Notes: generated from the sequence alone by a model not told the origin. Positions 54,704-60,317 are shown, counted from the stretch's first letter. The stretch: 64,000 nucleotides of DNA from Mobula hypostoma (GCF_963921235.1 NC_086097.1:20152001-20216000), one strand, 5' to 3'. Numbers and translations are program-made.

Positions 54704-56118
54704 CATAAGACAATAAGACACAAAGGCAGAATTAGGCCATGTGGCCCTTCAAGTCTGCTCCATCATTCAATCATGGTTGATCCTTTTCTTTTCCCCCTCC
54801 TCAGCCCCACTCCCCAGCCTTCTCCCCATAACCTTTGATGCTGTGTCCAATCAAGAACCTATCAAGCTCTGCCTTAAATACACCCAATGACCTGGCCTCC
54901 ACAGCTGCCTGTGGTAATAAATTCCACAAGTTCACCACCCTATGGCAATAAAAATTTCTCCACATCTGTTTTAAATGGACGCCCCTCTATCCTGAGGCTG
55001 TGCCCTCTTGTCGTAGACTCCTCCCACCATGGCTAACATCCTTTCCACATCTATTCCTGTCAAGGCCTTTCAACATTCGAAAGGTTTCAATGAGATCCCC
55101 TTCATCTTTCTAAATTCCAGCACAAGCACAGACCCAAAGCCGTATCATTCCTCATATCATAGCCCTTTCATTCCCAGAATCATCCTTGTGAACCACCTCT
55201 GAACCCTCCCCAATGCCAGCACATCTTTTAAGTGAGGAGCCCCAAACTGTTCAAATACTCAAGATAAGGCCTTACCAGTACCTTATAAAGCCTTAGCAAC
55301 ACATCCCTGCTCTTGTATTCTAGACCTCTTGAAATGAATGCTAACATCGCATTTGACTTCCTCAACACCAACTCTACCTGCAAATTAACCTTTAGGTTGT
55401 TTTGCAAAAGGACTCCCAACTCCTTCTGCAGCTCAGATTTTTGGATTTTCTTCCCATTCAGAAAACAATCTGCACATTTATTTCATTTACCAAAGTGCAT
55501 GACCATGCATTTTCCAGCATTGTATTTCATTTGCCAATTTCTTGCTCATTCTCTTAATCTGTCTGTCCTTCTGCAGCCTGTTTCTTCAACACTACCTGCC
55601 CCTCCACCAATCTTCGTATCATCTGCAAACTTGGCAACAAAGCCATCTATTCCATCATCTAAATCACTGATAAACACCATAAAAAGAATTGGTCCCAACA
55701 CCAACCCCTGTAGATCACCACTGGTCACTGGCAGACAACCAGAAAAGGATCCTTTTATTCCCACTCGCTGCCTTCTACCAATCAGCCAATGCTCTAACCA
55801 TGCCAGTAACTTTCCTGTAATACCATGGGCTGTTAACTTGGTAAGCAGCCTCATATGGCACCTTGTTAAAAGGCCTTCTGAAAGTCTAAATATATAACAT
55901 CCACTCCATCACCTTCATCTATCCTAATTGTAATCTCAAAGAATTCTAACAGGTTCATCAGGCAAGATTTTCCCTTAAAGAAACCATGCTGACTTTGTCC
56001 TATCTTGTCCTGTGTCACCAAGTAGTCCACAACCTGATCTTTAACAATTGACTCCAACATTTTCCCAACCACTGAAGTCAGGCTATCTGGTCTATAATTT
56101 CCCTCCTGCTGCCTTCTT
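54704..56118 (-). mobile_element. 5'-truncated degenerate CR1 in a COQ6 intron
   Basis: RT fragments (QSQHGF, FADD) and tail. Splits an older repeat at ...TATAGACTC|ACTTTCAAGG. Confidence 0.9.
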
Positions 56119-56265
56119 CACTTTCAAGGACTCTACAACTCATGTTCTCTGTATTATTTATATTTTTATTATTTGTATGATTTCTCTTCTTTTTCACATT
56201 GGTCATGTCAGTCTTTGATTATGTGGAGTTATTTCATAAATTCTATCATATTTCTTTATTGTGTA

Positions 56266-56463
56266 TGTTGTGTATGTGGCCTGATTACACAACAATGCTA
56301 TTAATAAAAACGCTGGAGACGGGAGCTAAGTTTCATGTTTCTTTACTGGCATAATCAGAACTCAGCACACACATACAGATCAATATGCACCTAATAGCGC
56401 ATTCAACGACATGTTACTAAAACATAAAGTAGTCCCTTATTATACTGTAGGCTATACGGTACA
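56266..56463 (-). repeat. 3' LTR (198 bp)
   Basis: Direct repeat of 59939-60136. Preceded on the minus strand by the polypurine tract. Confidence 0.95.
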
Positions 56464-56476
56464 CTCCTCCCCTTTT
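56464..56476 (-). promoter_or_regulatory. Polypurine tract AAAAGGGGAGGAG
   Basis: All-purine run abutting the 3' LTR on the minus strand. Confidence 0.9.
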
Positions 56477-56786
56477 ATTTTAATAATGTATCAACTGTTT
56501 TTTTACTGGGGCACAATGCTAAGTATGTTTACCCTTAACATACAAACACCTACCATTTGTTTACTTAGTAACTTAATAATATCAAATTATAACAAGCCTT
56601 TTTCTTTTACTTTTGGTCTAAGACCCATTTATAACTCAAGTCTCTGGGGAGATCTTCTCTGCCTCTCCGGGTAATGTCTGTCAATAAACCTGTTTGTTTT
56701 AATAAGATTTCCATATAAAGCCACGAAAAGCTGACCTCTGAGCATAGAGAGTTAAGAAGATGTGCGCCTCCAACTTGCTAAGAGTT

Positions 56787-57713
56787 CTAGGGAGCAGATC
56801 ACCTCTGTATAATGAAGTCTCCTCTGTGCAGATGTCCTAGATATATGCATCCTTGTGCTATCACTTGTCTTCCTTACCCATATCTCATTTGTTCCAACTG
56901 AGCTAATTACACAATCTTCGTATTCTCCTTAGATTCCAAATAGATAGCCTGACCTTTATGATACCATCTCTTATCGTAATATAACTTTCCATCTCCTATT
57001 TGTGTTTCATATCTTTGTGCTGGTGATTCAGCAGGAGTGCTGGGAAGATGCTCAGGAGAGGACGGAGATGCTGGTCTTTTCAGAGGTTTAAGCTTATTGA
57101 GAGTTCGCAAATCTTCCATTATCTGTTCATCTGTTAACAAGAAATTTAACTGCGCAGATACAGGTTTTCGTCTTTTGTCTGTAATTGGAACAGGGTTATT
57201 AGGTCTCCTCCTTAGTTTCCTAGTCATTATTGGCTATACCTCCATAGAATCTCCAGTGAGTTCCATTGTTAGCCTCTCATTCTCAATCATCTTTTTCTTT
57301 TCTTCTAACTCAATCTTTTTATCTTCAAATTCCTTCACTGCTGCTTTCTTCTCTTTAATATAATTCCTTTCCACTTGATCTGTCTCCAGTTGCAGAAAAA
57401 GCTCTGCATTTCGTATTCTTTCCTTGTATTGTTGATCTAGTTTCTTCATCCTTTTCTGATACTCCTGCAAAGTGCCTTCCTGTAGCTGCTGTAGCTGTCT
57501 TTTGAGAGATGTCAATTTCTCCTGGTACATCTGCTCTTTTACTTCCAGGTAGTCTTCATCATCCTGCTTATTGGCAATATCAGTCTCCCTTGCATCCTCT
57601 GTATCTTCATCTGAGTCGCGGCCACGGATACTGCGTTCGTCCTCATCAATGCTGTCAAGGTCCTCCTCGTCATTGTAATAGTCAACAATGGGTGAGAGGA
57701 GAGCTGCAGACAT
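56787..57713 (-). pseudogene. SUDS3: Processed (intronless) SUDS3 retrocopy, full CDS span
   Basis: MSAALLSP...[52 protein letters not shown]...[11 protein letters not shown]...[13 protein letters not shown]...[13 protein letters not shown]...[20 protein letters not shown] matches SUDS3. Lesions: TAG at 57236-34, frameshift near 56912, TGA at 56801-799, and an 8-codon deletion relative to human SUDS3 as recalled. Confidence 0.95.
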
Positions 57714-59556
57714 CTTCCCTGCCGAGCTGCCCTCCTTTGTTGACACATCTAGTGCCTTGACGGTATGCCAATCCAACTGGATTTTTCTGAGCCATTCACA
57801 TCCCAGCAACTGTGGTCCTCCATTTTTCAGTACATAGAGGTCCAGCTGCTGTGCTTCGTCTCTGTAGGTCACTGTCCCTTTAATTTTACCTTTGGGACGC
57901 ACTTTCTGTCCTGTAAGTCTTTAGCAGTAGCTTAGTTCGTTTCAGAGGTATGTGAGAAAACAGTCATTTGTAGTCGTGTACAGAGATCACTGTTGAAGCT
58001 GACCCTGTGTCCAACTCCATTTTCAGTCTCACACCTGCCACTTGTGGAGTGATCCTTATTACTCTTCAATCATCTGTCTCTTTCACGCTGTGAAGTCGTA
58101 GACAAGACAATTCACTTTCGTCTGAGTCGTTTTCATCAGAACTGCTTTTTTCCATTTTGTGTACATTGTTGTATTTTCCTTCTGGGGTTTCTTGTTTCTC
58201 TGCATTTTGTCCTTTTTCTGCTGTTTACTAGCTTTGTATACTCTGGCAATGTGGCCCTGTTTGCTACAGTTTCTGCATTCTTGGTCTTTAAACCAACAGT
58301 CATCCAGGTCATGTGACCTGTCCCCACAACGGTAACATTTCTTTCCTTCATATCTGTTCAGTGACATTTTATTCGTGGCATATTCCAGAGATTTTTGTTG
58401 CATCTCGGGAGCACCCCGTGCCGCTGTTTCCATTGATATTGCAATGTTTAGCGCTTTCTCGAATGAAAGGTCTCCTTCACACAGAAGGTTTCACAGTGCA
58501 TGCCACACACTAACCTGTCCCTCAATGCGTCCAATAGACTAGCTCCAAATTGACAATGTTCTGATAATTGCGCAATTCAGCACAATATTCAGAAATGCTT
58601 TCATTTTTGCTCTGATTCCGATTGTGAAATTTAAATCTTTCAGCAATAACCAGTAGTTTAGGGTTTAAATGCTGTTGGAGAGGGTCTACTATTTGTTTGA
58701 ACGTTTTGTCAGCTGGCTTTTCGGGGGTTAACAAGTTCCGTAGCAGGCGGTATGTTTTTGTTCCCATAATGAGTAAGACACTGGCTTTCTTTTAATCCTT
58801 AACACTGTTAGGCTCACAATATAACTCCACTCTTTCAATGTCAGGCTACGTCCACAGTAGACAGGATAATTTTGAAAACGCCGGTTTCCCATAAAAATGA
58901 TAGGTGTCCACACCAGGTGTTTTTAAAAATACCTCCGTCCACATTAAAGCAGGTATTTGGGCGAATCTCCTCCTACTGGGCATGCACAGGACACATCTAC
59001 AGAAAACAAGCGAAGAGGAAACAGTATACTATTTCCGTTTCCGCGGCCGGCGTTGTGCTATTTCCATTGGTCAAAAATTAAGAGTACCTACAACAACAGC
59101 AAAAGAAAGTTTTCAACCATGTCTTTGAGGAATACAAAGAAAACCTCCGCTGGAAAAAGCAGCTATGAACACAGACAATAAAGTAAACAACACACACGAA
59201 GCCGTCCACCATTGTTGTTGTGGTGGTGTTGGAAGTTGCGTTCAAGAAAACAATGAAATGCTGCACTGCCACCACCATCTGTTCCGGTACGTCATAACAG
59301 CGTTTTTAAAAAAGCTCTGATTACCCCGTACACACTACACCTCCCAACCAGCATTTTTAGATTTACACACTCTGAAGAGCGTTTTAGAAAAGTTCCGTTT
59401 TCGGGGGAGGAAAACGCCGTTTCAGTGTGGACGGAGGGTCAAAACAAAGAGAAAAGGCTTCGGTTGCGGATTTATCCGGTCTACTGTGGACATAGCCTAA
59501 GTTGCCCAGTCTTCAATGCCACTATCAAATGCTATAATGGTTCCAATCACTGCCAT
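57714..59556 (-). pseudogene. Gypsy gag-protease, disrupted
   Basis: ATG at 59556 gives MAVIGTIIAFDSGIEDWAT|YIERVELYC across the MITE. Also seen: TYRLLRNLLTPEKP...IAERFKFH, zinc knuckles CYRCGDRSHDLDDC and CRNCSKQGH, protease MELDTGSA (58020) and LLGCEWL. Frameshifts and stops present. Confidence 0.92.
58844..59497. mobile_element. PIF/Harbinger-like MITE inserted in gag
   Basis: TIRs GGCTACGTCCACAGTAGACAGGATAA / GGCTATGTCCACAGTAGACCGGATAA. 3-bp TSD TAA (one copy mutated to TCA). Removing it restores the gag frame. Confidence 0.9.
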
Positions 59557-59924
59557 CTTTGTTACGTTAATTAAGCCCTGTTCTCCCCTTATTTTCCTCT
59601 TTTGACTCACACATCCTTTTTGCTAGCGCCACGAGCACACTCCGTCTAGATCTGTGTTGCCACTTTTCATCTCCCTTCTGGGGCAGGCAGACCCTCAGCC
59701 CCTGGGTGTCAGCGTTGGCTGTGGTCTCAGCTGGACGTGCTGCGGCTCCGACTGTGTCTCTTGGTTTCCTGACGTTCCCGACTCCAGCTGTGCTCATGCT
59801 TCCTTTCAGACTCGCAGCCTCGCTCTGCCTCCTTCTCCCACTCCTTGGCTCATTCCTTGCGCTCTTCTTCCGAGTGTCGTTATCAATTAAAACACGGCGT
59901 TCTGATACAATGTAGGCTCATTAA

Positions 59925-59935
59925 CCCTGTCGCCA
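59925..59935 (-). promoter_or_regulatory. Primer binding site TGGCGACAGGG
   Basis: Starts 3 nt inside the 5' LTR boundary with TGG (complement of tRNA CCA). Resembles the tRNA-Ser(GCT) 3'-end complement TGGCGACGAGG; tRNA identity uncertain. Confidence 0.8.
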
Positions 59936-59938
59936 ATT

Positions 59939-60136
59939 TGTTGTGTACGTGGCCTGGTTACACAACAATGCTATTAGTGAAAACGCTGGAGACGGGAGCT
60001 AAGTTTCATGGTTCTTTACTGGCATAATCCGAACTCGGCACACACGTACAGATCAATATGCTTCTAATAGCGCATTCAACGACATGTTACTAAAACATAA
60101 AGTAGTCCCTTATTATACGGTAGGCTATATGGTACA
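59939..60136 (-). repeat. 5' LTR (198 bp)
   Basis: Direct repeat of 56266-56463 with 12 substitutions by manual count. Followed on the minus strand by the PBS. Confidence 0.95.
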
Positions 60137-60317
60137 GTGCATTTTGTAAATGGCTGCAAGAAAATGAATCTCAAGATTGTATATGGCAACATATAAATAC
60201 TTAAGATAATAATTTACTTTGACTTTGAAATGACTGGCCCCAGGTATCCACTGTCCAACTTTTTAAAAAAAATTTTTTAAAAACAGCACTATGCAAGGAC
60301 AGAAGACGTCTACTTAC

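Follow-up and report, generated by a model that had tools for sequence, protein, structure and literature searches.

A decayed Ty3/Gypsy family of Mobula hypostoma with SUDS3 cDNA in place of its pol core, very probably born by template switching

The locus treated here lies in a 64,000-nucleotide (nt) stretch of the genome of Mobula hypostoma (GCF_963921235.1, NC_086097.1:20152001-20216000). The whole stretch is called the window, and positions are counted from its first letter unless said otherwise. On its minus strand, from 60136 to 56266, two long terminal repeats (LTRs) enclose gag, an aspartic protease and an intronless copy of SUDS3, the gene for a subunit of the Sin3-HDAC corepressor. 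An earlier reading, made by a model from the DNA of the window (hereafter the sequence-only reading), had described a Gypsy retrotransposon that captured a complete SUDS3 messenger RNA (mRNA) in place of its pol core. Here we set the element beside its sister copies, the parental SUDS3 gene and an autonomous relative from the same genome. The element is very probably an old and decayed copy of a non-autonomous Ty3/Gypsy family that was born by template switching onto SUDS3 mRNA.

Results

Architecture of the element

In element orientation the parts follow each other as gag, protease, SUDS3 and pol tail (Table 1), the order given by the sequence-only reading. Neither reverse transcriptase (RT) nor RNase H nor an integrase core was found in the interior of the window element, again as claimed, and the element is therefore a non-autonomous derivative. 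The order protease-RT-RNase H-integrase, not seen in the window element, was present in a polyprotein relative (P0123) and in a genomic relative (residues 2-1311). The cis signals of a mobile element were all kept, as had also been stated. The two LTRs run from TG to CA and agree without gaps at 186 of their 198 positions, close to the 94% estimated before. A TGG-initiated motif resembling a primer-binding site follows the 5' LTR at a distance of 3 nt and reads TGGCGACGAGG in less mutated sister copies. The predicted polypurine tract directly precedes the 3' LTR in the window as well as in the sister copies; all 13 copies inspected have it there, none with more than one altered base.

In a sister copy that has decayed less, the protease site reads ELDTGSA and the CCHC knuckles are readable. 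The gag-protease reading of this copy was 59-61% identical to residues 1-399 of Gypsy polyproteins of 1311 amino acids named "K02A2.6-like". In Pfam, the zf-CCHC match of the window (E 7.5e-4) fell under the cut-off of the database, and a search with the 352-residue gag-protease reading of a sister copy returned no family at E 0.001 or better. Beyond the protease the element resumes its likeness to Gypsy at the very end of pol. The pol tail of the window, RHYPERQRRSPQRLEL followed by the stop codon that ends at 56629, aligned with the pol C-terminus of the autonomous relative, RRYPERQRRPPQRLEL and stop, which bore out the integrase-tail-like return noticed before. Because the likeness to Gypsy covers polyprotein residues 1-399 and, after that, no more than the final codons of pol, the comparison supports a replacement of pol and not an interruption, with the SUDS3 cDNA (complementary DNA) standing in place of RT, RNase H and integrase. 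The frames of gag, protease and SUDS3 were all broken in the window copy, a point absent from the sequence-only reading. A run of C within the pol tail (AGAAGACCCC...CAGAG, window 56640-56655) varied in length between copies and was shortened and interrupted in the window.

Table 1. Parts of the element and its direct flanks in window coordinates, listed in element orientation
Feature	Position	Strand	Remarks
Upstream target-site duplication	60137..60141	-	TGCAC; four of five bases equal to downstream TACAC
5' LTR	59939..60136	-	198 nt, TG...CA; 186/198 identical to 3' LTR, gapless
Primer-binding-site-like motif	59925..59935	-	TGGCGACAGGG; 3 nt past 5' LTR
gag with CCHC knuckles, then aspartic protease	57733..59556	-	frame broken; ends just past protease motif
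Insertion resembling a miniature inverted-repeat transposable element, inside gag	58844..59497	.	654 nt; private to the window copy, outside the family
Protease DTG	about 58003..58011	-	within the gag-protease region
5' junction microhomology	57726..57732	-	GGGCAGC; in the autonomous protease-RT boundary and the parental SUDS3 5' untranslated region (5'UTR)
Captured SUDS3 5'UTR remnant	57714..57732	-	about 19 nt; by alignment to parental exon 1; keeps SUDS3 in the Gag-protease frame
Intronless SUDS3 coding sequence, broken	56787..57713	-	start codon at 57713, stop ends at 56787; Pfam Sds3
SUDS3 3'UTR remnant	56676..56786	-	111 nt; follows the coding end without a break in the last parental exon
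ATTAAA	56698..56703	-	in the SUDS3 3'UTR remnant
Short-form 3' junction microhomology	56676..56680	-	CAGAC; SUDS3 TTGACAGAC/TGAAG; autonomous GGGCAGAC/GTTACCCGGAGAGG
Last pol codons (integrase C-terminal tail) and TAA stop	56629..56675	-	matches the end of the pol frame in the autonomous relative
3' untranslated internal region	56464..56628	-	kept among copies and in the autonomous relative; ends in the polypurine tract
Polypurine tract	56464..56476	-	AAAAGGGGAGGAG; adjoins 3' LTR
3' LTR	56266..56463	-	198 nt
Downstream target-site duplication	56261..56265	-	TACAC

Size and age of the family

The genome searched comprised 3.48 Gb in 200 contigs. With a query of 1081 nt that spans SUDS3 and its two junctions, 604 first-look candidates were obtained. 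Forty matches were scored; each covered 1071 nt or more of the query at 91-100% identity, and they lay on many contigs. Twenty copies were fetched with their flanks, which makes 21 together with the window copy. The layout gag-protease-SUDS3-tail was found in every one of the 20, most of them with both LTRs. Both LTR ends could be placed in ten sister copies, and five of these carried perfect 5-bp duplications of the target site, all different (ACTTT, GGAAG, CCTGC, CTCCT and TGTAC). SUDS3 with both junctions thus recurred at several loci with different duplications, the pattern proposed beforehand as the mark of a chimera that transposed as a unit. A 37-mer across the 5' junction matched 233 places in the genome when up to three mismatches were allowed (reversed-pattern control, 0); this probe recovered 13 of the 21 known copies, so that the count is likely an underestimate. 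The chimera was thereby shown to be a family that spread as a unit over hundreds of dispersed sites. A protein search of the genome returned 1995 first-look candidates, and "SDS3-like" proteins of the retrocopy type are annotated in two Mobula species.

Measured against the parental coding sequence, the copies had diverged by 4.4-6.2%, with a median of 5.3%; between copies the difference was about 8%. This pattern fits one burst from a parent-like founder. Between the two LTRs of one element the difference amounted to 6.1-12.7% in 13 copies, the window pair being the closest. The family is old and without a sign of recent activity. The LTRs of sister copies (e.g. L024, L028 and L036) are either about 198 or about 223 nt long, the two types differing by a duplicated segment of about 25 nt; with respect to this segment the 5' and 3' LTR of one element differ in several copies.

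Autonomous relatives were found by a genome search with a polyprotein of 1311 residues and the domain order protease, RT, RNase H and integrase. Near-full-length relatives are present in the genome; one of them matches residues 2-1311 with seven stops, and two small pieces of it were read. The 37-mer across the protease-RT boundary of the autonomous type matched 192 places (control, 0). In like-for-like 37-mer counts, 233 vs 192, the autonomous type does not outnumber the chimera.

Parental gene and captured cargo

A DNA similarity query with the last exon did not reach the parental gene: each of the 40 matches scored turned out to be a copy of the family, at 91-93% identity. Bona fide SDS3 proteins of ray, sawfish and chimaera carry the residues ELKENLIA, which are missing from every protein of the retrocopy type. 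A degenerate pattern coding for these eight residues had one match in the genome, on contig C78, and exon 1 was located by a second pattern. The parental SUDS3 gene has 12 exons over about 59 kb, separated by 11 introns, ten GT-AG and one AT-AC. Its product is intact, 319 residues long and identical to a named Mobula SDS3 save eight extra residues in that record. With 11 introns in the parent and none in the copy, the cargo must have come from RNA, as had been asserted. Exons 7 and 8 of the parental gene are separated by an intron (L050:5737-8853, minus strand, contig C78) that starts with ATATCCTT, ends with AC and has CTTAAC shortly before its end; it looks like an AT-AC intron of the U12 type.

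Exon by exon, the SUDS3 coding sequence matched the parental exons at 90-99%. Its start and stop codons were placed correctly by the sequence-only reading, and Pfam Sds3 (PF08598) scored 35.1 bits in the window and 40.5 bits in a sister copy (cut-off 25.4). In the window the first stop came after 159 codons. The claim of a complete SUDS3 mRNA, in turn, has to be given up: of the 5'UTR no more than about 19 nt were captured, the 3'UTR is truncated and exon 6 lacks 24 nt. The missing 24 nt (a gap between 57306 and 57307 in the window) lie inside one exon, between two copies of TGAGTTA, and their loss is best read as a skip of the reverse transcriptase. Alternative splicing was ruled out as the source of the gap, because the gap is intra-exonic, not bounded by GT...AG and shorter than an intron can be.

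SUDS3 was in frame with Gag-protease in 19 of the 21 copies, with 84 or 81 nt between the protease motif and the ATG. A Gag-protease-SUDS3 fusion would have been the product of the founder, comparable to the fusions of gag-onc viruses. Among the pieces listed for four RNA runs, none spanned either chimeric junction by at least 31 letters; the RNA contigs were informative for the authentic SUDS3 mRNA only. One contig, in run X5, extended the parental 3'UTR 1146 nt past the window junction. The ATTAAA at 56703, correctly noticed before, is therefore not the end of the parental mRNA. A spliced X5 contig that has the parental 24 nt added 168 nt of parental 5'UTR beyond the 5' junction.

Anatomy of the junctions

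At the 5' junction the autonomous relative reads ...AAAGGAGGGCAGC/AAGGCT and the parental 5'UTR ...GGGGGCGGGCAGC/TCGGCG; the chimera reads ...AAAGGAGGGCAGC/TCGGCG. The overlap GGGCAGC measures 7 nt, and nine of ten surrounding bases agree. The 3' junction occurs in two forms. In the short form, found in the window and ten other copies, 214 nt of the parent's last exon are kept and SUDS3 ...TTGACAGAC is joined to GTTACCC...; the pol end of the relative reads ...GGGCAGAC/GTTACCCGGAGAGGCAGAGAAGACC...RRYPERQRRPPQRLEL and stop, and CAGAC lies within a stretch of 14 bases, 10 of which agree. In the long form, found in 10 of the 21 copies, 443 nt of the last exon are kept and SUDS3 ...GGACAATCT is joined to AGAGAAGACC. 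Comparison with parent and relative, which had been suggested as a way to map the microhomologies, thus gave GGGCAGC for the 5' junction and CAGAC for the 3' junction of the window. No poly(A) tract was present at the 3' end of the cDNA in either form, in agreement with the sequence-only reading, and no target-site duplication was found around the SUDS3 segment alone.

The short 3' junction was met at 125 places in the genome and the long one at 106 (controls, 0). One match of the short-junction probe, on contig C12 (GTTTCAGGACAGAC...), was the autonomous element's own tail and not a chimera, an illustration of the close similarity between the SUDS3 3'UTR and the pol tail at this point. The short form has about 230 nt less of the SUDS3 3'UTR than the long form and shares its 5' junction and its 24-nt skip. 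A plain deletion of the long form was ruled out as its source, since 16 nt of Gypsy tail present in the short form are absent from the long form. With this extra Gypsy tail, it most likely arose by a further template switch between chimera and autonomous element. The 3' junction of the window is a secondary form.

Other features in and near the element

The 654-nt insertion in gag, not mentioned by the sequence-only reading, was missing from all 20 other copies fetched. It has terminal inverted repeats of 19 nt, GGCTATGTCCACAGTAGAC, and is flanked by TTA and TGA at a place where the sister copies have one TTA; we take these flanks to resemble the 3-bp duplication of the PIF/Harbinger type. Just downstream of the element and outside it, on the minus strand of the window (55546-56117), lies a fragment of the type of long interspersed nuclear elements (LINEs). 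Two adjoining open frames of this fragment matched Pfam RVT_1 with 27.4 and 24.3 bits, under the cut-off of 29.6.

Discussion

The mechanism that we favour starts with minus-strand DNA synthesis on Gypsy RNA in a virus-like particle, where the 3' end of Gypsy would be copied first. Synthesis would then have jumped onto a co-packaged, spliced SUDS3 mRNA within the SUDS3 3'UTR and would have copied the whole coding sequence, skipping the 24 nt between the two TGAGTTA repeats of exon 6. The return to Gypsy RNA may have occurred at the 7-nt microhomology about 19 nt upstream of the SUDS3 ATG, just after the protease domain. The product kept both LTRs, primer-binding site, polypurine tract, gag and protease and lost RT, RNase H and the integrase core. 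RT and integrase could be supplied in trans by the autonomous relatives present in the genome. The short form may have followed by a later template switch at CAGAC, between long-form chimeric RNA and autonomous RNA. What we infer is that the mRNA was packaged together with Gypsy RNA, that the switches came in this order and that RT and integrase were supplied in trans. Of the double template switch proposed by the sequence-only reading, the principle is supported by junctions with microhomology, by the absence of poly(A) and by the RNA origin of the cargo; the 3' junction that this reading described is the secondary form.

Several observations weigh against this account. The autonomous relative that was read is only about 80-86% alike in tail and LTR, though close in the protease region, and it should be taken as a relative of the original partner and not as that partner established. 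The long 3' junction has no more than 2-3 nt of microhomology, and one of its bases, an A in place of the parental G, agrees cleanly with neither template. The 5-bp target-site duplication claimed for the window stood only in part, the flanking pentamers TGCAC and TACAC being alike at four of five positions and not perfect; among the ten sister copies with both LTR ends placed, one duplication was likewise limited to four of five bases and four copies had no clear one. Mobilisation would moreover have proceeded in trans, presumably by the autonomous relatives. Finally, the sequence of the 5' junction would fit template switching and read-through transduction alike.

Read-through transduction is an unlikely but coherent alternative. 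A Gypsy element would have stood in or just upstream of SUDS3 exon 1, protease and 5'UTR would have been joined at the DNA or RNA level by deletion or read-through, and recombination by reverse transcriptase would have made the 3' junction only. This would agree with a 5' junction inside the 5'UTR of exon 1 and with a cargo in frame with Gag-protease as in gag-onc fusions, and the 7-nt microhomology is equally compatible with a microhomology-mediated deletion. The captured 5'UTR is also shorter by at least 168 nt than that of the authentic mRNA, so that a switch was not forced by the end of the template at the cap. However, no trace of an LTR or of Gypsy was seen in the 1.5 kb read to either side of parental exon 1, by comparisons that included no LTR-specific search. 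The short 3' junction and the 24-nt skip carry the same signature of microhomology, which is typical of jumps of the reverse transcriptase, and the two-switch pattern is described as general in the accessible part of Tan et al. 2016 (PMC5131818). The chance that a LINE placed a processed pseudogene into a resident Gypsy, that pol was lost separately and that the composite was then copied is next to nil in our view. LINE RT fragments do lie nearby (window 55546-56117), and a 2026 preprint (doi 10.64898/2026.06.26.734816), in its accessible part, ascribes the retrocopies of cartilaginous fishes generally to non-LTR elements. Yet the cDNA has no poly(A) at its 3' end in either form and no duplication flanking it, the marks by which the sequence-only reading itself would have recognised a LINE-type insertion. 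It starts within the 5'UTR and ends within the 3'UTR, and the loss of pol coincides exactly with the boundaries of the cDNA, at microhomologies common to the intact element. A LINE-mediated insertion is contradicted by this anatomy of the junctions.

A separate question is whether the cargo did anything for its carrier. On present evidence SUDS3 is a passenger whose copies decayed. A Gag-protease-SUDS3 protein without eight residues of the coiled coil might have acted as a decoy that weakened Sin3-HDAC silencing, aided the spread of the element and stood under selection while the family was active; we hold this to be very unlikely. The coding sequence is whole save for the 24-nt skip, it is retained entirely by both junction forms and it is in frame in 19 of 21 copies, and the chimera equals or exceeds the autonomous type in 37-mer places (233 vs 192). 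The in-frame join, however, has a one-in-three chance of arising by itself. An intact SUDS3 frame was found in none of the 21 copies. Ten matches among the 127 best-scoring copies were free of stops, three or four of them at full length, which by a rough estimate of decay is about what chance survival would leave. Non-CpG transitions shared by two to four copies were distributed as 31 nonsynonymous to 28 synonymous, compared with 153 to 66 among private ones (Fisher p = 0.019), as selection would have it. Yet 59 of the 62 changes in the class shared by two to four copies are transitions, most of which can be explained by repeated mutation at hot sites, and the five non-CpG variants at intermediate frequency (5-16 of 21 copies) were four nonsynonymous to one synonymous. 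No coding site separates the short from the long form, which leaves hardly any internal branch for a test of selection. Of the differences from the parent, twelve were present in at least 17 of 21 copies, ten of them synonymous and two not; in this comparison without outgroup DNA they may equally lie on the branch of the host gene.

The family provides a clear vertebrate case of a host cDNA that was captured by an LTR element and turned into a successful mobile family. As parent gene, autonomous relative and all junctions are readable, it constitutes a natural record of template switching, with at least three jumps at microhomologies and a later recombinant form. Since the cargo encodes part of a silencing complex and is joined in frame to Gag, counter-silencing also becomes a testable, though unlikely, hypothesis; if the decoy reading were true, a mobile element would have been armed with a piece of the host's own silencing machinery.

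Our data also bear on the counting of retrocopies. SUDS3 is among the five top retrocopy parents of cartilaginous fishes in the accessible part of the 2026 preprint (doi 10.64898/2026.06.26.734816), where retrocopy counts are discussed as the outcome of non-LTR activity and selective retention and no LTR vehicle is mentioned. Here the SUDS3 copies ride a Gypsy element as passengers, and their number therefore reflects amplification of a transposon, not repeated retroposition or retention. The other top parents listed there, MIPOL1, SDF2L1, SLU7 and ZNF276, may also be cargos borne by transposons. Our survey of the literature on SUDS3 retrocopies and on captured host genes in non-autonomous LTR elements of vertebrates met with no description of a SUDS3 Gypsy family.

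Comparison with known systems

The transduction of oncogenes by acutely transforming retroviruses (gag-onc) is reportedly the subject of work by Swain and Coffin in 1992 and Goodrich and Duesberg in 1990. In these viruses, too, a spliced host cDNA is said to replace pol or env in frame with gag, the product to be defective and dependent on a helper, and the 3' junction to arise by non-homologous recombination during reverse transcription. The present family differs from them in being an endogenous Ty3/Gypsy element without env that spread in the germ line to hundreds of copies. Its cargo, moreover, is a corepressor subunit and not a growth-promoting gene, and it is not known to confer a phenotype. 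Non-autonomous LTR elements that keep gag, are without pol and are moved by relatives are represented by the ETn/MusD type of the mouse. The SUDS3 family resembles these in having kept LTRs, primer-binding site and polypurine tract without enzymes of its own and in a copy number similar to that of the helper, whereas the replaced interior of the mouse elements is not a recognisable protein-coding cDNA of the host. Plant LTR elements with captured genes usually carry fragments, often from several genes; here, in contrast, the whole coding sequence of one animal gene is carried. Maize Bs1 and the rice retrocopies, plant elements named in the accessible part of Tan et al. 2016, are similar to the SUDS3 family in that pieces of host cDNA replace internal sequence.

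The model of two switches in LTR-mediated retroposition of metazoans is described by Tan et al. 2016 (Genome Res 26:1663; PMC5131818), and the anatomy seen here conforms to it. The capture of oncogenes by retroviruses rests on this model as well. In the part of that paper accessible to us, the median microsimilarity at the fusion points is 6 bp and LTR retrocopy loci can act as non-autonomous elements. The SUDS3 family shares with those retrocopies an intronless cDNA that replaces the internal part, the retention of both LTRs, microsimilarity and the lack of poly(A). Unlike the present family, they are described there as single loci, with two Drosophila retrocopies at more than one insertion site. 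Here the junction was found at no fewer than 233 places and in two forms, with a near-complete coding sequence fused in frame to Gag-protease. The kind of mechanism is already known; the family stands out by its number of copies in a vertebrate genome, by a cargo that is nearly complete and in frame, and by several template switches that can still be read from it.

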